This document shows, piece after piece, positions 6,014-32,659 of a stretch of DNA of 64,000 nucleotides. The stretch spans positions 1,504,001 through 1,568,000 of the forward strand of contig CAVSIV010000006.1 of assembly GCA_963728205.1 (NCBI GenBank), given 5' to 3'. Made by a program: the position numbers and the translations under genes. A model generated the notes under the pieces. The model saw only the letters and a list, made by a program, of their open reading frames with translations, had not been told where the DNA came from and ran no database searches. Numbering within the stretch: the stretch's first letter is position 1; the number at the start of each line of letters is the position of its first letter. The stretch comes from an uncultured Chloroflexia bacterium (lineage in GTDB: Bacteria; Chloroflexota; Dehalococcoidia; UBA2979).

Positions 6014-6958
6014 TCAGCGCGGCGCCGCGACCGGCGCCTTCCCGTAGGTCGGCATCAGCCACTGCGCGTACTGCGGCAGGCGGCCCGTGATCATCTGGAA
6101 GTACGTCGTCTGCAGCTGCTTGCTCACCGTGCCGGGCCGGCCCTCGCCGATCGGCACGCGGTCGACCTCGACCACCGGCGTCACGTGCGCCGCCGTGCCG
6201 GTCATGAAGATCTCGTCGGCGATGTAGAGCTCGGAGCGGTCAATCGAGCGGCGCTCCACCTCGAGGCCGAGCTCGCGCTGCGCGATCTCGAGCACCGTGT
6301 CGAGCGTGATGCCCTCGAGGATGTTGTCCTGCGGCGCCGGCGAGACCAGCCGGCCGTGCCGCATGATCACGATGTTCTCGCCGGACCCCTCGGACACGTG
6401 CCCGTCCTGGTTGAGCATGATCGCCTCGTCGAAGCCGTTGAGCTGCGCCTCGGTTTTCGCGAGCGCGCTGTTCACGTACGCCCCGTTCACCTTCGCGCGC
6501 GCCGGGATCGAGTTGTCGTCCACGCGCCGCCACGACGATGTCGCGCACCGCGCGCCCGCCTCGGGGTCGAGGTACGCACCGAACGGCGTGACGAAGAGCA
6601 GGAAGTCGTCGTCGAGGTTGTGCATGCGCACGCCCACGACCTCGGACGACTTGTAGACCATCGGCCGGATGTAGACGTCCTCGCGGTAGCCGTTGCGCTC
6701 CGCGAGCTCGCGCACGGTGTCGACGAGCTCGTCGTCGCTGTACTTCAGCGACAGTCGCAGGATCTTCGCGCTCTTGCGCAGGCGCTGGATGTGCTCGCGG
6801 ACCTTGAAGAGGTAGAGCTCCTCGGCGTCCTCGTTCCAGTTGCCGCGGATGCCCTCGAAGACGGCGGTCCCGTAGTTGAAGGCGTGGGTCATCACGCTGA
6901 TCTTGGCCTGCTCCAGCGGTACGAATTCGCCCTGGAAGAACGCGGTCGGCGTTGGCAT
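6014..6958 (-). CDS. ilvE: Branched-chain amino acid aminotransferase
   Basis: THAFNYGTAVFEGIRG, AKVNGAYVNS (PLP Lys), EGSGENI, ILEGIT, FMTGTAA; ATG at 6958. Confidence 0.92.
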   Translation of the reverse strand: MPTPTAFFQGEFVPLEQAKISVMTHAFNYGTAVFEGIRGNWNEDAEELYLFKVREHIQRLRKSAKILRLSLKYSDDELVDTVRELAERNGYREDVYIRPMVYKSSEVVGVRMHNLDDDFLLFVTPFGAYLDPEAGARCATSSWRRVDDNSIPARAKVNGAYVNSALAKTEAQLNGFDEAIMLNQDGHVSEGSGENIVIMRHGRLVSPAPQDNILEGITLDTVLEIAQRELGLEVERRSIDRSELYIADEIFMTGTAAHVTPVVEVDRVPIGEGRPGTVSKQLQTTYFQMITGRLPQYAQWLMPTYGKAPVAAPR

Positions 6959-7171
6959 GGCGGGACCCTCCACTTCGAGGGGAGCGGCGACGGGGCCCCC
7001 TCGGCGGAGGGGTGTGCCCGGGCCCGGGTGGGGAATGGCGGAATCATAGGTTCGGGCTCGAACGGGCGGCAAGGCCAATCGGCGCGGCCGGCTCCGGGCC
7101 GCCCGTGGGCTGGCGCGTGCGGTGCGCCGGCGCGGTGGGAGTATTCTCGGCCGCGCTGAAGGGAGCCGGTG

Positions 7172-8017
7172 ATGGGGAAGCTGAGCGAGACGTTCGAGGT
7201 CGGTGACCTGCGCGTGGCGGCGCTGTCCGACGGCGCGCCCGAGCGGGCGCTCGGCGGCTTCTTCCACGGGGTCGACCAGGCCGAGTGGATGCGCGCGATC
7301 GGCGTGACCAACCCGGAGCAACGCCTGCCCTTCAACTTCGGGACGTTCCTCGTGCGCGGCGGCGGGCGCACCGTGCTCGTCGACTCCGGCCTCGGGCGCG
7401 TCGCGCGCACGATGGGCGTGCCCGGCGGCGGCGAGCTGCTCGAGCGCCTCGCCGAGCAGGGCGTCGCCCGCGAGGACGTCGACGACGTCGTGCACACGCA
7501 CCTCCACTTCGACCACTGCGGATGGGACGTCTCGGGCGACGACGGCCGCGAGCTGACGTTCCCCAGCGCGACCATCCACGTCGCGGGCGCCGAGCTCGAC
7601 TACTGGCTCGACCCCGCGCGCGACGGCGAGGACCGCGCGCAGCAGGCGCGCGCCGCGATCGTCCCGCCGCGCGACGCCGGTCGCGTGCAGACCTTCGACG
7701 GCGAGGTCGACCTGCTGCCGGGCGTGCGCACGATTCCGACGCCGGGCCATACGCCCGGCCACACCTCGGTGCTGCTGTCGTCGCAGGGCGCGCACCTGCT
7801 GATCCTCGGGGACGCCGCGCACCACCCTGTGCACCTCGAGCACCACGACTGGATCCCCGGTGTCGATCTCGATCCTGCGGAGTCGCAGCGGTCGCGCGCG
7901 AAGGTTGCGGCGCTGGCGGCCGACCGCGGCGCGGTGGTCACGGGCGGCCACTTCCCGATCCTCACGCTCGGCCGAGTGGAACGCAGCGAGGGCGGCTACC
8001 GCTGGCGCGCGGTGTGA
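7172..8017 (+). CDS. MBL-fold metallo-hydrolase (AHL-lactonase-like)
   Basis: THLHFDHCG, TPGHTPGH, GDAAH, GHF. Confidence 0.85.
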   Translation: MGKLSETFEVGDLRVAALSDGAPERALGGFFHGVDQAEWMRAIGVTNPEQRLPFNFGTFLVRGGGRTVLVDSGLGRVARTMGVPGGGELLERLAEQGVAREDVDDVVHTHLHFDHCGWDVSGDDGRELTFPSATIHVAGAELDYWLDPARDGEDRAQQARAAIVPPRDAGRVQTFDGEVDLLPGVRTIPTPGHTPGHTSVLLSSQGAHLLILGDAAHHPVHLEHHDWIPGVDLDPAESQRSRAKVAALAADRGAVVTGGHFPILTLGRVERSEGGYRWRAV

Positions 8018-8520
8018 GCGAGACCGGCGCGCTCGCCACGCACGTGCGCCCTGCGAGGCGCGACGACATCCCCGCGATCATCGCCTTCGTGCGCGGGCTC
8101 GCCGCCTTCGAGCGCGAGCCGCCGGAGAGCGTGCGCCTGGCGCCCGCCGACCTCGAGCGCGACCTCTTCGGCGCGACGCCGCGCGCGGAGGTGTTGATCG
8201 CGGAGCAGGGCGGCGCGCCGGTCGGCTTCGCGCTGTTCTTTCACAACTACTCGACGTGGGAGGGGCGGCCCGGCCTGTACGTGGAGGACCTCTTCGTCGA
8301 CGCGGCCGCGCGCGGCACCGGCGCCGGCCGCGCGCTGATGGCGGCGCTGGCCCGCCTCGCGCGCGACCGCGGCTGCGCGCGGCTCGAGCTCGCGGTGCTC
8401 GACTGGAACCCGGCGCGCGCCTTCTACGCGCGGCTCGGCATGCGCTGGATGCGCGAGTGGCTGCCGTATCGCGTCGACGGCGCGGCCCTCGACGCGCTCG
8501 CAAACGAGGCCGCCCCGTGA
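8014..8520 (+). CDS. GNAT N-acetyltransferase (SSAT-like)
   Basis: FFHNYSTWEGRPGLYVEDLFV, RGTGAG, VLDWN; GTGA overlap with the upstream stop. Confidence 0.85.
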   Translation: MSETGALATHVRPARRDDIPAIIAFVRGLAAFEREPPESVRLAPADLERDLFGATPRAEVLIAEQGGAPVGFALFFHNYSTWEGRPGLYVEDLFVDAAARGTGAGRALMAALARLARDRGCARLELAVLDWNPARAFYARLGMRWMREWLPYRVDGAALDALANEAAP

Positions 8521-8993: not shown

Positions 8994-9997
8994 TCGCTCT
9001 CCGCGGCCGGCTTGCGGCGGGGCGTCTCGCGTGGCGACGGCGTCGCGCTCCCCGGCCGCTCGAACCGCGACGGCGGCTCGGCGCCCGGACCCGCTGTCTC
9101 CACCGGCGGCGTCACGGGGTGCAGCCGGCGCTCGCGGTCGGCCGCCGTCTCGCCGCTCGGCAGCCCGATCGTCTGCGGCTCGGCGTGCGCGTGGAGGATG
9201 GCGTTGAGCTCCGCGCCGACGAGCATGATGAACGACGTAATGTACAGCCACATCATCAGCACGATGATCGTGCCGGCCGCGCCGTAGGTCGCCTGGTACG
9301 CGCCGAAGCGCGACACGTACACCGCGAACCCCGCCGTCGCGAGCACCCACGTGACCACGAACAGCAGCGAACCGACGACGACCCGCCGCATCGGGATGCG
9401 CACGTTCGGCGCGACGCGGTAGACGAACAGCATCGCGACGAAGAGCACCAGGAGCGTGACCGGGAACCGCGCATAGGCGACCGCCAGCCCCCACGCTCCG
9501 CCGAGCCCGAGCGAGCGCGCGAGGTGGTCGCCGGCAAACTGCCCGACGACGAGCAGCGCGAACCCGGCCACGAACGCCGCCCCGGCGAGCAACGTGAGGC
9601 CGATGCCCAGCGCCTGCTTGCGCACGAAGGGCCGTCCTTCGTCGACGTCGTACGCGCGGTTCATCGCCTTGATCGTCGACTTCACCCCGCTCGACGACGC
9701 CCACAGCGCCGCGATCGCGCCGAACGAGAGCAGGCCCGGGTGCGCCGACCCCAGCACGCTCTCGAGCTGCGAACGCAGGAAGCCCGCGGCGCTCGGCGGG
9801 ATCGACGTCGCGACGCGGCTCATCACCTCCTGCGTCGGGTTCTGCACATGCAGCCAGCTCGCCGCGAACCCGCCGAGCGCGGCGAGGAAGATGAAGAAGG
9901 GAAACAGCGCGAAGAGGAAGCGGTACGCGAGTTCCGCGGCGAGCCCGGGCACGTCGTCGTCCTGGATTTCGTGGAGCAGCTCGCGAAGGATGTCCAT
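8990..9997 (-). CDS. YihY/BrkB family inner membrane protein
   Basis: AAELAYRFLFALFP, LWASSSG, NRAYDV.E.R, Y.ATYG...I.LM.WLY. Confidence 0.88.
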   Translation of the reverse strand: MDILRELLHEIQDDDVPGLAAELAYRFLFALFPFFIFLAALGGFAASWLHVQNPTQEVMSRVATSIPPSAAGFLRSQLESVLGSAHPGLLSFGAIAALWASSSGVKSTIKAMNRAYDVDEGRPFVRKQALGIGLTLLAGAAFVAGFALLVVGQFAGDHLARSLGLGGAWGLAVAYARFPVTLLVLFVAMLFVYRVAPNVRIPMRRVVVGSLLFVVTWVLATAGFAVYVSRFGAYQATYGAAGTIIVLMMWLYITSFIMLVGAELNAILHAHAEPQTIGLPSGETAADRERRLHPVTPPVETAGPGAEPPSRFERPGSATPSPRETPRRKPAAESD

Positions 9998-10137
9998 GGG
10001 ACCTCCTCCGACCACGTTACCCGATGCGTGCTCGCACTCCCGCGCAGAGACATGCGCCGGACGTTGCGAGTGCATTGCCGCCGGCTCCGGCCGCGCCGCC
10101 CGTCGATGCAGGGCAGCGCGGGCGGGCGGGCGGGGCC

Positions 10138-10953
10138 TCACACCTTGCGGTAGCGGTTCACCGCGATCGGCGCCGCGACCAGCGTGATCGCCGCGATCCA
10201 GAGCAGCGCCAGCCACACGGAGTCGCCGACGGGCGTGCCCAGCGAGAGCGCGCGTACGGCGTCCACCGTGTGCGACACCGGGTTCGCCTCCGCGATCGCG
10301 CGCAGCCAGGCGGGCATCGTCTGCACCGGGACGAACGCCGACGACACGAACACGAACGGGAAGACCCAGAAGAAGCCGGCGGTCTGCACCGTCTCGACGT
10401 CGCGCACGCTCACGCCGATGGCGGCGGAGATCCAGGAGAACGGCACGCCGAAGAGGACGGCCATCACGACGACGAAGAACGCGTCGACCGGCCCGCCGTG
10501 GAAGCGGAACCCGATCAGATACCCGACCGCGATCATCAGCAGCACGACGAACACGTTGCGGATCGTGTCCGCGATGATGCGACCGGACACCACCGCCGGG
10601 CGCGCCATCGGCAGCGAGCGGTAGCGGTCGATCATGCCGGCCGAGAGATCCTCGGCGAGCCCGAGGCCCGTGGCCATCGACCCGAACAGCACCGTCTGCA
10701 CGAAGATGCCCGGCAGCAGGAAGTCGGTGTAGTTGCCGGTCGCGCCGCTCACGGCGCCGCCGAAGACGTAGTTGAAGAGCACGACGAACATCACCGGCTG
10801 CACCGTCGAGAAGAACAGCAGCTCCGGCAGGCGCACGTAGCGGAGCAGGTTGCGTCGGGCCATCGTCAGCGAGTCGGTGACGACCCACCGCATGCGCGTC
10901 GCCCGCGAGGGGCGGATCGGCGCCGCCGACATCGTCCCGGTCAGCGCCGTCAT
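10138..10953 (-). CDS. ABC-2 type permease (DrrB-like)
   Basis: QPVMFVVLF.YVFGG, G.IDRYRSLPM, SSAFVP..TMP.WL..A..NP. Confidence 0.9.
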   Translation of the reverse strand: MTALTGTMSAAPIRPSRATRMRWVVTDSLTMARRNLLRYVRLPELLFFSTVQPVMFVVLFNYVFGGAVSGATGNYTDFLLPGIFVQTVLFGSMATGLGLAEDLSAGMIDRYRSLPMARPAVVSGRIIADTIRNVFVVLLMIAVGYLIGFRFHGGPVDAFFVVVMAVLFGVPFSWISAAIGVSVRDVETVQTAGFFWVFPFVFVSSAFVPVQTMPAWLRAIAEANPVSHTVDAVRALSLGTPVGDSVWLALLWIAAITLVAAPIAVNRYRKV

Positions 10954-25408: not shown

Positions 25409-26179
25409 GTGGCCTTCTTCGATCTCTCGGGCAAGCACGCCCTCATCACCGGCGCGACCGGGCCGCTGCAGCGCGCGCTGGCGGTCGCGCTGGCCGACGC
25501 CGGCGCCGACGTCTCGCTCACGACCCTCCACGCCGATCAGGCGGAGGAGGTACAGGCGAACTCGATCCTCAACGAGTGCTGGTCGTTCGGCCGCAAGGGC
25601 GAGGTGAAGACCGTCGATCTCACCGACGCGACTGCCGTCGACCGCGCGGTCGGCGAGCTGGAGTCGTCGGTCGGGCCCATCGACATCCTCGTGAACGGCG
25701 TTCACGAGGCGAACATCAAGCCGATCCTGCAGACCAGCGCCGCTGAGTGGGAACGCGAGCTGTCCCGCGACGCGACGAGCGTCTTCGTCGCGACGCAGGC
25801 CGTCGGCAAGCGCATGCTCGAGCGCGGCAAGGGCCGCGTCGTCGCGCTGGTCTCGATCCTCGAGGACCGCGGCGTGCCGAACTGCGCGACCTTCGGCGCC
25901 GCGCAGGGCGCCGTGCTCGGCTTCGTGCGGTCCGCCGGCATCGAGTGGGGGCGCCACGGCGTGACCGTGAACGCGCTCGCGCTCGGGTTCTTCGACGACG
26001 TCGCCGGCCCGCAGCGCGACGAGGAGCTGCACGCGGTGCTCGAGCGCTACATCCCGCTGCGCCGCCTGGGCACCCCGGCGGACCTGCAGGGCGCGCTCCT
26101 CTACCTCGTCTCCGACGAGGCGGCCTTCGTGATGAGCGAGACGATCACCGTCGACGGCGCGATCGCGATCCACGCGTAG
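25409..26179 (+). CDS. SDR-fold protein with degenerate motifs
   Basis: TGATGPLQ instead of TGxxxGxG; FGAAQ instead of YxxxK; otherwise SDR-like (GPIDILVN, VTVNAL, IPLRRLG.P). Confidence 0.8.
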   Translation: MAFFDLSGKHALITGATGPLQRALAVALADAGADVSLTTLHADQAEEVQANSILNECWSFGRKGEVKTVDLTDATAVDRAVGELESSVGPIDILVNGVHEANIKPILQTSAAEWERELSRDATSVFVATQAVGKRMLERGKGRVVALVSILEDRGVPNCATFGAAQGAVLGFVRSAGIEWGRHGVTVNALALGFFDDVAGPQRDEELHAVLERYIPLRRLGTPADLQGALLYLVSDEAAFVMSETITVDGAIAIHA

Positions 26180-26181
26180 TG

Positions 26182-26772
26182 GTGAGCGCGGGCGAGCAGC
26201 CGCGCGGACCGGCCGGCCGGCGCGCCCCGGTGGGGCAGCCCGGCCCGACCTGGACCGGCGACGGCTCGCTGCGCCCGCGGCCGCAGCGGCCGGAGCCGCT
26301 CAACCTCACGCCGCACAAGGTCGCCACCGGCCCCGCCGGCCTCGAGATCGCGACCTTCCGCCGCCGCCTCGGCGGATTCCTCATCGACCAGGGCATCCTG
26401 TCGCTGATCGCGATCGGCATGGCGATGGTGATCTTCGCGGGCGTCGACCTGAAGGACCCGGTGCAGTCCGATGCGGCATTGCAGCGGCTCGCGCTCGCGT
26501 ACTACGCGGTGATGACCGTGTACTACTGGTACTTCAACATGCGTGGCCAGACGCCCGGCAAGCGCGCGATGGGACTGCGTCTCGTCGCCGCGGACGGCAG
26601 TCCGCCGGGCATCTGGCGGTCGTTGCTGCGCGCCGCCGCGATCCAGATCAGCTCGTTTTTCTGGCTCGGCTACATCTGGGCGTCGTGGGACCCCCACACG
26701 CAGACCTGGCACGACAAGTGGGCGCGGACGTGGGTCGTGCGTGCGCCGGAGTCGGGCCGTCCGCCGGCCTAG
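26182..26772 (+). CDS. RDD family membrane protein
   Basis: ATFRRRLGGFLID, GQTPGKRAMGLRLV, QTWHDKWARTWV. Confidence 0.88.
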   Translation: MSAGEQPRGPAGRRAPVGQPGPTWTGDGSLRPRPQRPEPLNLTPHKVATGPAGLEIATFRRRLGGFLIDQGILSLIAIGMAMVIFAGVDLKDPVQSDAALQRLALAYYAVMTVYYWYFNMRGQTPGKRAMGLRLVAADGSPPGIWRSLLRAAAIQISSFFWLGYIWASWDPHTQTWHDKWARTWVVRAPESGRPPA

Positions 26773-26851
26773 ACGGCCGCGCCGTAGCGTCCGCGGCGCC
26801 GCATCCCTCGGCGGAAGAGCGGCCACCGCGCGGACGACGCGCCCGACCTGG

Positions 26852-28819
26852 TTAGCTTGCGCGCCGTGTCCACGACCGCGGGTCGATTCGCGACACGCGG
26901 GGCGCCTCGGCGCCTTCCGACCGCTCCTGAGGCGCGGTCGCCGTGATGGCGAACCGGTACGTGATGTCGTCGGCGCGGACCCAGTACTCGTTCACCCCGT
27001 CACGGCTGGACCAGAGCACGGGCAGGCCGCGCTGTTCGGCGACGCGCGCGAGGTCGTCGAAGCTTTCGACGGTGATCGCGCTTGGCGCGTCGAGGGGCCG
27101 CGGCGGCACCAGCGAGGCCGGGAGGATCAGCCCTCCCTCCCCCTGCGCCGGCGGGGGTGTTGCCACGGGCTGCGGAGCGCGCGGCGGCGCGACCGCGGCC
27201 GAGGGTGGGAGTGCAGTCGGAACGAATGGCGACGGCGACGTCGCTCTGGGCGGTGCCACGGGCAGCGCGCGGTCGGCTGTGGGGGGCGAAAGCGTCGTCG
27301 CCGCGGGAGCCATTCGCGCTCGCCGCGCGCGGCGGCGCGTGGGTTGCGCGCGACGGCGATTGCGTGGCAGCGCCGTCGGCGTCAACGACGAGGCGCCCAC
27401 GGTGGCTTCCGGGACTCCGCGATCGTCATCGTCGAGGGCGACCAGCAGGTGGCCATAGCGCGCGCGGATCTGCGAGACGGGTCCCCGCCGCGACACCGCG
27501 CGCGTGCCGAGCGCCACCGCGAGGAAGCCAAGTGCTGCGACCACGACAGACCCGAGGGCGATGTCGGGCAGCCGCGAGAACGGCAGCTCCACGCCCAGCA
27601 GGGGGATCGGCATCGTTCGCGGCACGATCGCCGGCCGGCCGACGGTGATGTTGGCGTTCGACTCGAGTGCGCTCGCCTTCGTGTCGAACTGCATCTGGTT
27701 TTCGGTGAGGCGGAAGTCGAGCCCCTGATCCGTGTCGCGCGAGAACGGGACGCCGCCGAACGTTCCGTCGGCATGCACCGTCGCCCCGATGTGGATCGTG
27801 TAGTAGAGCGACTTCACGCCTGTCTGGGTTTCCGCGGCCGTGATCGTGTTCAGGATCTCGCCGAGGTCGATGACGCCCTGCGCGCGTGCGGCGTTCCCGG
27901 CGAAGAGCACCGTGCCCTGGACGGGGATCGTTTTGCTCCACCCGTTCGGATGCTGGATCTGCACGTTGAGCTGCGTCGCGCCCGCGACGTCGGCGAGCGC
28001 GGCGCCCGGGGTGATCGGTGCAAGCTGGTAGTCGAAGGTCACCGGGAGACTGCGCACGAGGTCGAGGAAGACCGGCTGTGGCGCCCCGAGCTGGTTCCCG
28101 TCGTAGACGCCACCCGGCACCGTCGAGCCGTAGGTGAAGCGGCCGGCCTCGGAGAACGCCAGCGTGTGCGTCACGGACGTCTGATCGCCGCGGACCGCAT
28201 CGAGACCCGCGAGCGCCCCGCCCACCAGCAGGACCACCACGAGCGAGCCGACGATGGCCTGGCCGGTGGCCCCGTGGATCGTGAGCGTCTCCGCGAGCCG
28301 CCGGCGCGTGCGTCTGCCGCCACCCGTCGAGCGCGGCGCGGCCGGGCCGGCGCCGCCGCTCCGCCGACGCCGGACCGCGCTCCCCGCGACGAGCAGGAGC
28401 GCCAGCCCCCCGAGGAGCGCGACGAGTGCGCGCGGCCGCTGGAGGGCGTGCAGCACGTATCCCGCGTGCGGGATGATCCCCCACTCCTTGCCGATGATGT
28501 CTGATCGCGTGGGGTGGTAGCTGTCCGCGCTCGTGCGGTTGTCGCCCCGGAGCGTGAAGCGCTCGCCGTCGTCGGCGACGATGCGGTGCATCACGATCCC
28601 GAGGTCCGGGTTTCGCGACGCGACGATGTCGCCGACGCCGTAGTCCGATGCGCGCCGGATCAGCACGGCATCGCCGGTGTGCAACAGCGGTGACATCGAG
28701 TTGCCGTTGACGAACGCGTAGTCGAAGGCGCCACCGACCGATTGCGGGGCGAAGGCGATCCAGATGCTGATCGCGAAGACGACGGCAAGCCCGGCGCGAA
28801 ACGCGGAGAACGCCGGCAT
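26852..28819 (-). CDS. SipW/ER-type signal peptidase I (S26) fused to a DUF5305-like membrane-anchored domain
   Basis: VNGNSMSP...GD (Ser), VMHRIV (His, not Lys), RGDN...D, IIGK; then further TM helices flanking a beta-rich domain and a C-terminal VESFDDLA...Y.V...ITYRF segment. Alternative GTG start at 28864. Confidence 0.8.
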   Translation of the reverse strand: MPAFSAFRAGLAVVFAISIWIAFAPQSVGGAFDYAFVNGNSMSPLLHTGDAVLIRRASDYGVGDIVASRNPDLGIVMHRIVADDGERFTLRGDNRTSADSYHPTRSDIIGKEWGIIPHAGYVLHALQRPRALVALLGGLALLLVAGSAVRRRRSGGAGPAAPRSTGGGRRTRRRLAETLTIHGATGQAIVGSLVVVLLVGGALAGLDAVRGDQTSVTHTLAFSEAGRFTYGSTVPGGVYDGNQLGAPQPVFLDLVRSLPVTFDYQLAPITPGAALADVAGATQLNVQIQHPNGWSKTIPVQGTVLFAGNAARAQGVIDLGEILNTITAAETQTGVKSLYYTIHIGATVHADGTFGGVPFSRDTDQGLDFRLTENQMQFDTKASALESNANITVGRPAIVPRTMPIPLLGVELPFSRLPDIALGSVVVAALGFLAVALGTRAVSRRGPVSQIRARYGHLLVALDDDDRGVPEATVGASSLTPTALPRNRRRAQPTRRRARRARMAPAATTLSPPTADRALPVAPPRATSPSPFVPTALPPSAAVAPPRAPQPVATPPPAQGEGGLILPASLVPPRPLDAPSAITVESFDDLARVAEQRGLPVLWSSRDGVNEYWVRADDITYRFAITATAPQERSEGAEAPRVSRIDPRSWTRRAS

Positions 28820-28895
28820 GCGTCGGCGTCCGCTCCCCAGCGCGGCGGGCCGCGCGGCGCTCACGTGCCCGCTGAAGGTGCGTGGTCCGTCATCG

Positions 28896-29309
28896 CTACT
28901 CCGAGATGACGATGTCGAACGCGGTGGTGTTGGCCACGGTCAGCTGGCTGCCCACGGTGGTGTCGCAGGAGATGTTGTGCGCGGGCGCGACGCCGCCCGT
29001 GCGCGTGCACGTGTACCAGTGGCCGGGCAGCGTTTCGAAGTTCGCTTTGATGTTGGGCAGCACGGCGACGACGCTGCCGTTGTCGGCGGTTGCGGTGAAC
29101 GTGATCGAGTCGATGTTGCGTGGGTCGGCGGCGTTCAGGTTGTACACGATGCTCGAGATCGTGTAGCCGGACACGGTGTTCGTACCTTCACCTGCGGTGC
29201 TGTCGGGCACCGTGTTCGCGGCGGTGATCACGGTGCCGCCCACCGCGAACGCGGCGAGCACCACTGCCAGGGGCACGAGCCATCGGCGCAATCTGCTGAA
29301 GAGAGCCAC
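28896..29309 (-). CDS. Small secreted beta-rich protein (putative fibre major subunit), 137 aa
   Basis: RBS AGGAG then GTG; signal-like RLRRWLVPLAVVLAAFAVGGTVITAA; mature part NTVPDSTAGEG...; two Cys; Thr/Asn-rich. Confidence 0.75.
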   Translation of the reverse strand: MALFSRLRRWLVPLAVVLAAFAVGGTVITAANTVPDSTAGEGTNTVSGYTISSIVYNLNAADPRNIDSITFTATADNGSVVAVLPNIKANFETLPGHWYTCTRTGGVAPAHNISCDTTVGSQLTVANTTAFDIVISE

Positions 29310-29388
29310 GGTTGCTCCTGCCGTTCCGGGTCCGTGCCTGCTCCGGGTCCCGCTCGTGTTCGAACGATGTGGACAACGCCCGCGGACA

Positions 29389-29429
29389 CCGGTTCTCAGG
29401 TTCAGTATCCGAACGAACCCGAGAACCGG
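29389..29429. promoter_or_regulatory. Inverted repeat in divergent promoter region
   Basis: CCGGTTCTCAGGTTC-N11-GAACCCGAGAACCGG (14/15 match). Confidence 0.5.
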
Positions 29430-29572
29430 AGATCGGGCGAAACCCTCAACACCATCTGAGCGCCCCCCGAGTTGGCGGAACGTCCTGAGATGTCGTTGCG
29501 GGCTGTCTCCGCGCGGCACGAGGGGCTTCACGGAGAGACGCGCACCCGCGTCGCACCTAACGTCGAATCCGG

Positions 29573-30619
29573 ATGAAGCTGTCGCGCATCGCCCAGGTCG
29601 CCGTAGCGGTGCTGATCATGACGATCGGCGCATCGTTCATCACGGGCGCTGCCGACTCGAACGCGGTTCCTCCGTCCTCGGCCGGGGAGCAGACCCACAC
29701 CCCGGTCGTGGACGACTTCAAGCCGGCGGCGTGCGCGGCGCTCAGCCTCACGTCGCTGGTGACGGGCAGTGGCGTGATCAGCGGTACGGGCGGGAACGAC
29801 CTCATCCTGGGCAGCAACGCCGCCGATACCATCACCAGCAACGCGGGCGACGACTGCGTGCTCGCGGGCGGCGGGAACGACGGCATCTTCGCGGGAACCG
29901 GCGGCGGAGCCGGCGGCGGCAGCGACGTCCTGGACGCCGGGAGCGGCTCGGACACGTGCCACGGCGAAGCCGGGATGCCGACGTACATCAGCTGTGAAAC
30001 CGTCGTGGTTTCGGGGCTCGGGAGCTGGGTCAGCGGGCTCGTGCACGCCACGCCGGCCGGACAGGGCCGTGCGCTCGTCTTCGTCGGCATGGCCGAGAAC
30101 AACCCCGCGCGCACGCTCAGCGGCGTGACCTACGGCGGGCAGCCCCTCACGTGGGTCGCCAGTGCGACGTCAGGATCGACACCGGTGACGGTTGAGGTCT
30201 GGGTCCTCAACGAGGCGGGGATCGCGGCGGCGACCGACTCGACCTTCGTGCCGACGTGGACCGGCGCCGTCGCGAACGAGAACGAGTCGAGCTTCTTCCT
30301 CGGGGACGTCAACCAGTCGTCGCTCGCCGGCGCAACGAGCACCAGCGTTGGCCTGAACGGCTCCCCGCTCACCGCAGGCGCCCTCGCGAACACGGCGGGG
30401 GACATGGTGATCTTCGCCGCCGGAACGGGAAACGCGATCACGATGAGCCCCAACAACGGCTTCATCGAAGGTACTGACACGAACGTGGGAACCACGACCC
30501 TGGAAACCGGCTATCAGGAAGCGACGGGCGTGAACCTGACGCCGAGCACGACCCCAGGCGGCAACGCCGGTCGGTGGACCGTCGTCGGCGCGGTGTTCAA
30601 GTCCGTCACCACCCCGTAG
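29573..30619 (+). CDS. Secreted protein with GGxGxD-like Ca-binding repeats and a Thr/Gly-rich beta domain (putative minor/adhesin subunit)
   Basis: Signal-like N-terminus, SNAVPPSSAGE, repeats GTGGNDLILG, NAGDDCVLAGGGND, GGSDVLDAGSGSDTC. Confidence 0.75.
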   Translation: MKLSRIAQVAVAVLIMTIGASFITGAADSNAVPPSSAGEQTHTPVVDDFKPAACAALSLTSLVTGSGVISGTGGNDLILGSNAADTITSNAGDDCVLAGGGNDGIFAGTGGGAGGGSDVLDAGSGSDTCHGEAGMPTYISCETVVVSGLGSWVSGLVHATPAGQGRALVFVGMAENNPARTLSGVTYGGQPLTWVASATSGSTPVTVEVWVLNEAGIAAATDSTFVPTWTGAVANENESSFFLGDVNQSSLAGATSTSVGLNGSPLTAGALANTAGDMVIFAAGTGNAITMSPNNGFIEGTDTNVGTTTLETGYQEATGVNLTPSTTPGGNAGRWTVVGAVFKSVTTP

Positions 30620-30649
30620 GGCGGTCGCGGTGGCCGCCTGTGTGCAGCG

Positions 30650-31095
30650 GAACACGTCGGCGCCGGCGAGCGCCGCCACGCGATCCTCCGCGTAGCCGGC
30701 CAGCACCGTCGGCACCTCGGACGCGTCCGGCCCGAACGTCGGCGCCGCGTGCTCCACGCGTGCCGGCGTGCGCGACAGGCGGAACCGCCGGTCCTCGACG
30801 ACGGCCTCGCCGAGAACCGGGTGCGCGCGCCGCACGAAGTGGCCGCGGTGCGCGAGCTGCGGATCGCGCACGAGCTCGGTGCTGTTCTCCACGGTGTGCG
30901 CGGGAAGTGCAGCGACGCCTCGGCCTGCGCGCAGTCGATGTGCAGGCCCTCGCCGGTGCGGTCGCGGTGGTCGAGCGCGGCCAGCAGCGCCGCGCGCGTG
31001 AACCGCGGCGCGACGTCGTCCGTGTACGCCGCGACCATCGCCGGGTCGCGATCCGGCCAGCCGGCCACGCTGTTGAAGCCGGCGATCGCGGCGCC
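30650..31095 (-). pseudogene. CaiB/BaiF (family III) CoA-transferase remnant
   Basis: Middle segment AYTD..APRF...LLAALDHRDRTGEG.HID.AQ.E joined out of frame near 30903 to C-terminal DPQLAHRGHF...RLSRTP...AP..G; N-terminus missing. Confidence 0.75.
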
Positions 31096-31114
31096 CGTCG
31101 TGCGCGTGCGGCGC

Positions 31115-32491
31115 CTATGCAGGCGGAGGCTCGGTTCCACGCCGGCGCCGCGCGGCGATCACGCGCAGCGCCACGTAGCCGCCGACGCCGGCCACGACCG
31201 ACGCGCCGATGATGCCGAGCTTCGCGGCCTCCGCGGCGGCCTCGTCGGTGAACGCGAGCTCGGTGATGAAGAGCGACACGGTGAAGCCGATCCCGGCGAG
31301 CACGCCCAGCCCGGCAAGCGCGCTCCAGGTCACGCCCGGCGGCACGCGCGCCCCCGCGCGTACCGCCACCCACGTCCCCGCGAGGATGCCCGCCGGCTTC
31401 CCGATCGCCAGCGCGAGCAGCACCGCCCACGTCAGCGGCGACCCCGCCGCGGCGGACAGCGCCGACGGGCCGAGCGCGACCCCCGCGTTGGCGAACGCGA
31501 ACAGCGGCACGATGCCGAACGCCACCAGCGCGTGCAGCTCGTGCTCGAGCCGGTCCAGCGGCGCGACGGCCTGCGACGTCATCTTGCGCAGGTGCAGCAG
31601 CGTCTGCTGCTGTGCCTCGTGCCCGGCGCCGCCGCGCGCCGCCTCGCCCGGCTCGCCGGGCGGGCGCAGCCGCTGCAGCAGCGCCCCGGCGCGGTCGGGG
31701 AGCGCCTCCGGCCGGCCCCACCCGCGCCACGGCGTCAGCAACCCGAACGCCACGCCGACGATCGTCGGGTGCACGCCCGACTCGAGCACGCCGAACCACG
31801 CGAGCACGCCGAAGACGACGTAGAGCGGCACGTACCAGATGCCGATCTGCTGAGCGACCCACGCCAGCCCCAACATCAGCAGCGCGATCAGCAGCGGCGC
31901 GACGACGACCTGGTCCGTGTAGAACGCCGCGATCACGCCGATCGCCGCGATGTCGTCGAAGATCGCGATCGCGAGCAGCAGCGCCTTCAGCCCGGCGCCG
32001 ACGCGCGGCCCGAGCAGCGCCATCACTCCCAGCGCGAACGCGATGTCCGTCGCGATCGGGACGCCCCACCCGTGACGGAGCTCCGGGTCGTGCACCAGCG
32101 CGACGAAGATCAGCGCCGGCACCACGACCCCGCCGAGCGCCGCGCACAGCGGCAGCACGACGCGTCGCCGCGACCTGAGCTCGCCGACCGTCAGCTCGCG
32201 CTTGATCTCCAGCCCGACGACGAAGAAGAACAGCGTCATCGCCCCGTCGTTGACGAGCGCGTGCAGCGACTTCGCCACCGAGTAGAAGCCGAGGTCGAAC
32301 GCGACGCGGTGCTCGAAGAGCCGCTGATAGCCGTCGGCCCACGGGGAGTTCGCCCAGGCGAGCGCCAGCACAGCGCCGAGGATCAGGAGGAGGCCGCTCG
32401 ACGCCTCCGTGCGCGTGAAGTCCTGGAGCGGGCGGACGTAGCGGTCGAGCCGCTCCCGCCGCTGCGCCGGGTTCTGCCGCGTGAACTCCAT
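31115..32491 (-). CDS. nhaA: Na+/H+ antiporter NhaA
   Basis: VNDGAMTLFFFVVGLEIKRE, GWGVPIATDIAF, AIFDD, SGVHPT, GKPAG, GIGFTVSLFI. Confidence 0.93.
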   Translation of the reverse strand: MEFTRQNPAQRRERLDRYVRPLQDFTRTEASSGLLLILGAVLALAWANSPWADGYQRLFEHRVAFDLGFYSVAKSLHALVNDGAMTLFFFVVGLEIKRELTVGELRSRRRVVLPLCAALGGVVVPALIFVALVHDPELRHGWGVPIATDIAFALGVMALLGPRVGAGLKALLLAIAIFDDIAAIGVIAAFYTDQVVVAPLLIALLMLGLAWVAQQIGIWYVPLYVVFGVLAWFGVLESGVHPTIVGVAFGLLTPWRGWGRPEALPDRAGALLQRLRPPGEPGEAARGGAGHEAQQQTLLHLRKMTSQAVAPLDRLEHELHALVAFGIVPLFAFANAGVALGPSALSAAAGSPLTWAVLLALAIGKPAGILAGTWVAVRAGARVPPGVTWSALAGLGVLAGIGFTVSLFITELAFTDEAAAEAAKLGIIGASVVAGVGGYVALRVIAARRRRGTEPPPA

Positions 32492-32659
32492 GAGCGGACC
32501 TGTCGGTGCCGGCGGTGCCCTTCGCCTGATCCAGCATGACGGTCGGCGCACGGGGCTGCACGGAGCGAAACGGCCCGCCGGCAGCGGGCCCACGAGGACA
32601 TCACGCATGATTTATCATCGTCAGCGTCGAGCGCCCGCTCACACCCCGGAGGATGCCCC

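Follow-up and report, generated by a model that had tools for sequence, protein, structure and literature searches.

A conserved three-gene cassette of Chloroflexota and Actinomycetota, encoding a signal peptidase–DUF5305 fusion and two secreted β-rich proteins, is a candidate surface fibre system

The DNA analysed here, referred to as the window, is a stretch of 64,000 nucleotides (nt) from an uncultured Chloroflexia bacterium (Dehalococcoidia, UBA2979; contig CAVSIV010000006.1), with a G+C content of ~72%. Positions 26852–30619 hold three genes, encoding a small secreted protein (A), an S26-family signal peptidase joined to a DUF5305-type module, and a larger secreted protein (B). A preliminary description of this DNA had proposed that A and B are subunits of an undescribed fibre or pilus matured by a dedicated peptidase. 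The genes and their parts are listed below in window coordinates, with protein lengths in amino acids (aa) and transmembrane segments abbreviated as TM.

26852–28864, minus strand: peptidase gene, 670 aa, from the list of open reading frames (ORFs); S26 domain plus DUF5305-type module.
28385–28765, minus strand: S26 catalytic domain, peptidase residues 34–160, between TM1 and TM2; placed by hidden Markov model (HMM) matches, conservation and hydropathy.
27491–28285, minus strand: DUF5305-type module, with TM3 (194–226), ectodomain (227–430) and TM4 (431–458); placed by conservation and by PF17231 in orthologues.
27098–27490, minus strand: Pro/Ala/Arg-rich low-complexity cytoplasmic linker, peptidase residues 459–589; placed by composition, and unaligned in orthologues.
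26852–27097, minus strand: C-terminal cytoplasmic domain, peptidase residues 590–670 and stop codon; matches the end of DUF5305.
28896–29309, minus strand: gene A, 137 aa, GTG start with AGGAG 7 nt upstream; proposed major fibre subunit.
29184–29222, minus strand: conserved block of A, residues 30–42, A-A-N-T-V-P-D-S-T-A-G-E-G; proposed donor strand or recognition element.
29310–29572, no strand: divergent intergenic region between A and B, 263 bp, presumed to hold promoters; GC 0.658.
29573–30619, plus strand: gene B, 348 aa, divergent from A; proposed initiator, tip or adhesin subunit.
29648–29686, plus strand: shared block of B, residues 26–38, A-A-D-S-N-A-V-P-P-S-S-A-G, in which N30 is the invariant Asn.
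29753–29995, plus strand: RTX-type calcium-binding β-roll of B, residues 61–141, with four Cys conserved in the family.
30050–30616, plus strand: jelly-roll head of B, residues ~160–348, lineage-specific and without a Pfam family.

The preliminary description placed a Ser-His signal peptidase directly 3′ of a 137-aa secreted β-rich protein. This arrangement is borne out by the gap of 31 nt between the stop of A and the start of the peptidase gene, by the conservation of S56 and H93 in the peptidase, and by the sandwich modelled for A. A promoter and terminator scan of the intergenic region between A and B found no sigma-70-like site and no terminator, an Rfam scan of 26000–31500 gave no match at E ≤ 1, and a search of sequencing runs listed no RNA run for the locus.

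The three genes recur together. Loci were collected by a degenerate-pattern scan, with a 12-sequence A alignment and one genome per species, and their partners were sought by tblastn with the three window proteins. Thirty-six loci were confirmed; going by record title, they fall 27 in Chloroflexota (Dehalococcoidia, Anaerolineales, Ardenticatenaceae, Thermoflexus and Chloroflexia) and 9 in Actinomycetota (Gaiellaceae and metagenome-assembled genomes of Actinomycetes). In 34 of the 36, A is followed immediately by the peptidase gene in the same orientation. Of the other two, L010 breaks off at a contig end 12 nt past A, and L015 (7166–8315) is a decayed locus. At L015, B and an A paralogue are intact, what is left of the peptidase is a 127-aa frame similar by eye to its C-terminal domain, and the genes upstream are unrelated. 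A homologue of the first ~145 residues of B is present at 29 of the 36 loci, and the seven loci without B all end at a contig edge before the expected B position. B generally stands 3′ of the peptidase on the same strand, and the peptidase stop and B start overlap by 4 nt in 13 of 29 cases. Tandem A paralogues, in two or three copies, occur at L007, L008, L025 and L028, as is usual for pilin genes.

Clustering of all ORFs of at least 90 aa across the 36 loci left just three conserved families, A (36 loci), the peptidase (31) and B (29), with the next largest family in 6 loci. A fourth cluster, from 29 loci, was discarded because it lies entirely on the strand opposite the peptidase gene, as its antisense shadow. 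Since the clustering leaves only the three families, these loci share no conserved ATPase, sortase, chaperone, usher or regulator. Among 61 related genomes, the window's own included, 15 contain A together with the DUF5305 part and 44 contain neither; the DUF5305 part was found alone in 2, in each case close to the start of a contig, and A alone in none. These genomes are not independent samples, and no statistic is attached to the co-occurrence. The preliminary description had named motif proteins unlinked to such peptidase genes as a finding that would count against it; the opposite was seen, both in the 34 of 36 loci and in the absence of any A without the DUF5305 part among the 61 genomes. 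A, the peptidase and B are thus confirmed as one conserved, widespread three-gene cassette, found in many soil and sediment bacteria, and the peptidase is very probably a dedicated enzyme with A and B as its cognate substrates.

The catalytic part of the peptidase appears to be of the archaeal type. Residues 34–160 match the archaeal-type signal peptidase I profile TIGR02228 over positions 19–152 of 158, scoring 51.8 bits against a cut-off of 51.85. The score to the bacterial-type profile TIGR02227 is 30.7 bits (cut-off 47) and that to the Bacillus SipW equivalog 33.8 (cut-off 190); Pfam Peptidase_S24/S26 is also matched. Conservation was read from the window protein and 19 of the 31 clustered orthologues, chosen as single full-length frames. 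Residues conserved in at least 90% are S56-M57-x-P59 (within G-x-S-M-x-P), H93-R94, G107-D108-N109 and D114, and we take S56, H93 and the Asp boxes to be those assigned to catalysis. The combination of Ser with His, not Lys, and of Asp boxes is that of archaeal and endoplasmic reticulum-type enzymes. The genome also encodes two ordinary LepB-type peptidases elsewhere (150 and 79 bits to TIGR02227), and the window peptidase is therefore an additional, specialised enzyme.

Hydropathy places four membrane segments in the peptidase, at approximately 18–40, 144–166, 194–226 and 431–458. The order of parts is a TM, the S26 domain, a TM, an Arg-rich loop, a TM, an ectodomain of ~200 residues, a TM and a cytoplasmic tail, with the sidedness deduced. 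The second half has the topology of DUF5305 proteins as given in the accessible text of a recent preprint (bioRxiv 10.64898/2026.01.04.697558), namely a TM, a β-rich ectodomain, a TM and a cytoplasmic domain. An aromatic and Gly set is conserved between residues 245 and 348, including Y245, Y254, F266, Y279, G308, W309, F321 and G323. In the window protein, residues 590–638 match the end of the Pfam family PF17231 (positions 171–217 of 217) with 26.9 bits, the gathering score being 29. PF17231 is matched in 9 of 10 syntenic orthologues, with scores of up to 51.8 bits; the gathering score is exceeded in 5 of the 10, and the full profile, 1–217, is spanned by 6 of the 9 matches. The partial match of the window protein is explained by an insert that splits the module, the linker at 459–589. 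These 131 residues are 20% P, 18% A and 15% R, with an isoelectric point (pI) of 12. The tblastn alignments skip from ~480 to ~577 of the query, the linker makes the window peptidase ~100 residues longer than the typical orthologue, and the C-terminal part of the peptidase was matched by tblastn in 8 loci.

Protein A consists of an Arg-rich n-region, a hydrophobic leader of ~20 residues, the conserved block and a Thr/Asn/Ser-rich domain with two Cys; the mature protein is ~105 aa. An AlphaFold2 model built on a 95-row alignment has a mean predicted local distance difference test (pLDDT) score of 80.6, with a leader helix at 2–24 and a confident six-strand β-sandwich at 49–136 (pLDDT ~90 or more). 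Residues 27–46, which include the conserved block, are below 50. The chain ends directly after the last strand, with no C-terminal hydrophobic tail. Trimers of residues 31–137 were also predicted, with a homo-oligomer score of 0.00; the prediction was run without controls, so that this value counts neither for nor against binding.

The A family is large and nameless. A word-indexed search returned 206 homologues at E ≤ 0.01, and the 120 of these that were listed carry no Pfam domain and no name other than 'hypothetical protein'. A profile and alignment were made from A and 94 of the 120, selected by eye to exclude truncated and near-identical entries and the copy from the window itself. With this profile, 1789 cluster representatives were found at E ≤ 0.001 and 960 at E ≤ 1e-10 among 1.84 billion. 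Five residues are invariant in the 95-sequence alignment, N32, G40, G48, C101 and C115, and the sandwich is disulfide-bearing. Exactly two Cys follow the motif in 226 of the 239 members in which the motif could be anchored (267 examined). The hydrophobic region of the leader, by comparison, is the least conserved part of the protein.

Searches with A against known families and structures were negative. A gave no match in Pfam or NCBIfam at E ≤ 1, and neither database holds a model for its family. A Pfam scan of the 95 members found no family in more than 6 of them, with a best E-value for any family in any member of 0.00072. The TasA/camelysin family PF12389 was absent from the 25 families listed in that scan, and hhalign of the A alignment with the genome's own PF12389 protein gave a probability of 0.3% over 6 columns, so that the earlier statement that the subunits are not recognisably TasA stands. 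A sequence-profile search of the PDB with the A alignment returned antibody variable domains alone, at E ≥ 0.12, which we take as chance. Foldseek found nothing in the PDB at E ≤ 0.001 for A and nothing for B, and a search of the ESM Atlas gave solely unnamed clusters, from Chloroflexota and Actinomycetota. One entry, P0303 (336 aa), has an A-like N-terminal part of 106 residues running into a histidine-kinase-like C-terminus and is probably a gene-call or assembly chimera.

Only one feature is common to A and B, the block [A/T]-A-[A/S/T]-N-x-V-P-x-[S/T] with which their leaders end. The preliminary description had noted that the two share a motif only at this place. A six-frame pattern scan of the whole 4.13-Mb genome gave three matches: A, B and one inside a 467-aa frame without a leader. 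Numbering positions from the invariant Asn as 0, the motif could be anchored in 239 of 267 A proteins and 20 of 25 B proteins. In A the frequencies are N 1.00, T 0.87, V 0.89, P 0.90, S/T 0.88, A 0.90 and G 0.95, and the block is the best-conserved part of the protein. In B they are N 1.00, V 0.90, P 0.95 and S/T 0.95, with A, L or I at +7 and no conservation at +8. Read from −5, the consensus of A is A, F, T/A, A, A/S, N, T, V, P, x, S/T, x, A, G, x, G and that of B is A, L/F/I, A, A, T/A/S, N, x, V, P, x, S/T, x, A/L/I, after which B sequences diverge. The A-G pair at +7/+8 is thus conserved in A only.

Small residues stand before the Asn, in A with T/A at −3 (0.92) and A/S/T at −1 (0.90), and small residues at −3 and −1 are the classic rule for signal peptidase cleavage. 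A common cut after the A-G of A (after A39) was considered and rejected, as +7 is Leu or Ile in 45% of B proteins. Since small residues at −3 and −1 are found in both families and the A-G site is not conserved in B, the cut is placed directly before the invariant Asn, which in A would fall between A31 and N32.

Protein B is built of a leader, the shared block, RTX nonapeptide repeats and a jelly-roll head. Its repeats match PF00353 (HemolysinCabind) with 36.6 bits, over a gathering score of 23, and the nonapeptide-repeat HMM match together with the β-roll fold identifies them as an RTX β-roll. The AlphaFold2 model has a pLDDT of 90.0 and a predicted template modelling score of 0.76. The C-terminal 198 residues contain 15% Thr and 14% Gly, and the divergent 348-aa secreted protein with calcium-binding-like repeats and a Thr/Gly-rich end, as first described, is therefore present. 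This form is not the usual one. The part conserved as the third cassette gene is residues 1–145, and the usual B is ~125–165 aa, corresponding to the β-roll alone. Of 29 B frames 25 are shorter than 200 aa, and the four longer ones include over-extended ORF calls. Apart from the window, only three close relatives, at 50–63% identity, have a divergent B upstream of A that is longer by ~200 residues at its C-terminus, so that the head form is special to the closest relatives of the window. L035 has a B protein of 663 aa.

The head domain itself occurs in 40 other proteins (P0126–P0164 among them), some of which also carry glycoside hydrolase family 5 (GH5) or 10 (GH10), fn3, dockerin, PKD or type IX secretion system (T9SS) domains. 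The few with a named organism come from Planctomycetota, Acidimicrobiales and Bacteroidia. From this distribution, the head fits a binding module and may be an undescribed one. Mature A, the B roll and the B head are alike in being acidic, with pI values of 4.1–4.4.

Taken together, these features can be arranged into an assembly pathway. A and B would be exported by Sec with their long leaders, and the Ser-His S26 peptidase would cleave both just ahead of the invariant Asn, behind the small −3 and −1 residues. The fused DUF5305 module, with its TM, β-rich ectodomain, TM and cytoplasmic domain, could act as an accessory or platform. Both mature proteins would then begin N-x-V-P-x-S/T-x-(A/L). 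The N-terminal segment of A may insert as a donor strand into the sandwich of the next A, giving a filament. B would present the same N-terminus; because a complete β-roll replaces the sandwich, it could only donate a strand, and it may thereby prime or cap the fibre, as TapA does for TasA. In the lineage of the window, B would in addition bear the jelly-roll head, which may bind a ligand.

That the cassette builds a surface fibre in this way, by strand donation and without a sortase or chaperone, and with B as primer or tip, is a reading we hold to be evenly poised between right and wrong; it is drawn from analogy, from the pattern of conservation and from the disordered N-terminus in the A model. 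Polymerisation of A, processing by this peptidase and the cut site, the role of B, any calcium dependence, an anchoring role of the peptidase and the platform role of DUF5305 are all steps that we infer. A more specific form of the proposal is tentative and somewhat doubtful: the cassette would define a new class of strand-donation fibre, with a subunit that is a ~105-residue disulfide-bearing Ig/FnIII-like sandwich unrelated to the TasA jelly rolls, an RTX β-roll primer or tip that makes initiation calcium-dependent, and a fused peptidase–DUF5305 as maturase and platform, constituting the sole machinery.

Several observations weigh against a fibre. The conserved block contains Pro and Gly, which are unusual for a β-strand, and its role could be recognition by the peptidase and nothing more. 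As modelled in monomeric form, A is neither self-complementing nor clearly short of a strand, and the hhalign result leaves A with no sequence link to TasA. Gene arrangements at other loci also vary. L023 (8292–8861) and L035 (8483–8962) have a short S26-only peptidase, in which no DUF5305 part was detected with the window query, and at L004 (8425–10397) the S26 and DUF5305 parts are separate overlapping frames; the peptidase–DUF5305 fusion is therefore not obligatory. Finally, the distribution is patchy, as the cassette was not found in the three congeners searched (completeness 95, 80 and 90%).

The alternative that survives best is a secretion and processing module without a filament. The block would then be a cleavage signal, and A and B would form a released or wall-held calcium-dependent complex, adhesin or matrix component. 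The block straddles a classic −3/−1 site, as this alternative would have it, and the substrate groove of the peptidase would also select for alternating conservation. Likewise, the fold of A resembles ordinary FnIII, carbohydrate-binding module (CBM) or receptor-type sandwiches, and the B head recurs in secreted glycoside hydrolases and T9SS proteins. However, conservation runs at least 6–8 residues past the predicted cut in both A and B, and the block is where A is conserved best. Signal peptidases normally read fewer than 6–8 residues past the cut. Tandem A paralogues are typical of pilins. The characterised systems that pair an archaeal-type peptidase with DUF5305 all build fibres, as far as the accessible text of PMC11821415, PMC12337348 and bioRxiv 10.64898/2026.01.04.697558 goes. 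On balance, we regard a module without a filament as rather unlikely, though to be taken seriously.

Retention of the hydrophobic N-terminus of A and B as a membrane anchor, with the peptidase acting as a regulated sheddase or signalling protease, is improbable. A hydrophobic region of ~20 residues can span a membrane and the cytoplasmic domain of the peptidase could sense or signal, but the small −3 and −1 residues before the invariant Asn are kept in both families, the leader sequence is poorly conserved, and the 36 loci have no conserved regulator or signalling gene in common. It is more improbable still, to the point of being hardly credible, that A is a type IV pilin- or archaellin-like protein whose N-terminal helix is retained as the filament core: structure matches have root-mean-square deviations of 7.9–8.7 Å, the helix, of just 23 residues, gives way to a disordered stretch, the variable hydrophobic region neither contains nor follows a conserved Gly/Ala prepilin cut site, and the conserved partner in the 36 loci is an S26 peptidase, with no conserved prepilin peptidase, ATPase or platform gene. 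A sortase-assembled pilus was rejected, with no conserved sortase in the 36 loci and no C-terminal hydrophobic tail on A.

The earlier remark that the locus is richer in A/T than its flanks is real but modest by windowed GC and GC3 (G+C at third codon positions). GC is 0.682 in 28600–30600 against a genome mean of 0.725 (standard deviation 0.029), which is a mild dip of 1.5 standard deviations at the 7th percentile of 2-kb windows. GC3 is 0.89–0.91 at the locus against 0.95–0.98 in flanking genes, and the whole peptidase gene is genome-typical (0.723). A genomic island or recent transfer was considered and set aside; the dip is not taken as evidence of it because it lies largely in the first-codon positions of Thr/Asn/Ser-rich proteins and GC3 is still high. 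The adjoining pseudogene was also correctly recognised at the outset. It is a remnant of a family III CoA-transferase in two minus-strand frames, 30514–31140 and 30620–30892, which match CoA_transf_3 profile positions 137–204 and 314–365 of 366; no match to positions 1–136 was found in the two frames scanned. The remnant sits between B, whose end its own end overlaps, and an NhaA-like antiporter gene (31115–32608).

Chloroflexota and many soil Actinomycetota are abundant and mostly uncultured, and their cell surface is poorly understood. If the fibre proposal is true, the cassette would give them a defined fibre or adhesion system, represented by at least 1789 distinct A-family clusters that have had no family model; in the more specific form of the proposal, it would be a minimal three-gene pilus system widespread in both phyla. 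The principle of a dedicated peptidase with strand-donating subunits would then extend from Bacillus and archaea to a new subunit fold. Three genes are few enough for reconstitution, and the natural peptidase–DUF5305 fusion is a setting in which the role of DUF5305 can be tested. Even without a fibre, the invariant block at the cut site would be a new cognate signal of a specialised signal peptidase, useful for annotation.

The closest published systems include archaeal ones. Statements about them here, and about the other systems below, follow the accessible portions of the cited works. In the haloarchaeal Tat-fimbriae (Tafi), the S26 peptidase TafD spans the membrane four times and has two outside domains and a Ser/His/Arg triplet; its deletion abolishes TafA processing and fimbriae, and TafG is the DUF5305 protein (Galeva et al., PMC11821415). 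In taf-like clusters of Thermococcales and Archaeoglobus, the peptidase and the DUF5305 protein are accompanied by a tip protein of ~300 aa with two domains and by two or three small DUF1102 proteins that carry Sec leaders, and peptidases containing DUF5305 are remarked upon in some bacteria, Actinoplanes and Tepidiforma (PMC11821415). The structure of the TafE pilus showed assembly by strand donation (Sonani et al., PMC12337348). Like Tafi, the cassette has a dedicated four-span S26 peptidase with two outside domains and a DUF5305 module (PMC11821415). It likewise has one to three small secreted β-rich subunits beside a larger two-domain secreted protein of ~300 aa, and no chaperone, usher, sortase or ATPase in either system; its leaders are of Sec type, as in the non-halophilic taf-like clusters. 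Part for part, A would correspond to the pilin, the fused gene to TafD plus TafG, and B to a TapA- or TafC-like initiator or tip. The cassette differs in its bacterial hosts, in the fusion of peptidase and DUF5305 and in being known from its genes alone. A has no detectable Pfam similarity and is smaller (~105 aa mature), the second subunit is an RTX β-roll, and neither a transcription regulator nor a TafF-like anchor is conserved in the cassette.

The Bacillus subtilis tapA-sipW-tasA operon offers a second parallel, with a major subunit, a dedicated archaeal/ER-type signal peptidase and a minor protein (PMC10151520, PMC9245690). In both, the minor protein has its own complete fold and shares only an N-terminal segment with the major subunit, and genes overlap, tapA with sipW there (PMC10151520) and the peptidase stop with the B start in 13 of 29 loci here. 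TapA donates its N-terminus to TasA, and its fold is complete, making a role beyond initiation unlikely (Roske et al., PMC10151520). A, however, is neither a TasA/camelysin protein (PF12389) nor a jelly roll of ~230 aa, B is not TapA-like, and the peptidase here carries DUF5305. A classical locus of this kind is found in the same genome, L042 (G000:C6:1372000-1386000), ~150 kb upstream of the window start, with ORFs at 6878–8503, 9513–10073 and 10130–10546, all on the plus strand. Its products are a SipW-type peptidase (TIGR02228, 104.9 bits) whose cytoplasmic tail is long and coiled-coil-like, a TasA/camelysin protein (PF12389, 47.2 bits) and an fn3 protein whose leader ends similarly. Two distinct dedicated-peptidase systems are therefore present in this organism.

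The AbpX fibre shares with the cassette acidic subunits (pI ~4 here), a possible involvement of calcium, a dedicated peptidase, a DUF5305 accessory, and minor and tip subunits (bioRxiv 10.64898/2026.01.04.697558). It differs in having a peptidase of ten membrane spans, against four here, and in that AbpX is a jelly roll of the TasA superfamily whose calcium sites lie at the donor-strand interface, where the cassette has its calcium-binding repeats in a separate protein, B. The same preprint proposes DUF5305 as an accessory subunit of the peptidase and records a fusion in Anaerolinea thermophila; its passages on fused peptidases, with the supplements lying outside our search, do not mention their substrates. 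The chaperone–usher pili of diderm bacteria offer a further comparison. Their small Ig-like subunits, and an N-terminal extension proposed here to complete the neighbouring subunit, are points of likeness, whereas the cassette uses a dedicated signal peptidase in place of a chaperone or usher, for which it has no gene, and occurs in hosts without an outer-membrane context.

These comparisons qualify the word 'undescribed' used in the preliminary description. Tafi and AbpX were published in 2025–2026, and the papers mention peptidase–DUF5305 fusions in bacteria that include Chloroflexota and Actinomycetota (PMC11821415; bioRxiv 10.64898/2026.01.04.697558), so that the operating principle and the pairing of peptidase and DUF5305 are already in print. 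The substrates of those fusions are not described in the accessible text, and we found no description of the A family, the B family or the motif, nor of the bacterial cassette, in the searchable literature, which did not extend to subscription journals or to the supplements of the key papers, where such loci could be listed. The picture of a major subunit with a minor or adhesin-like subunit agrees with the published relatives. By this analogy, we give an even chance to the view that the cassette is the bacterial counterpart, in monoderm-type Chloroflexota and Actinomycetota, of Tafi and the taf-like clusters, AbpX and tapA-sipW-tasA, with other subunit families in their place.

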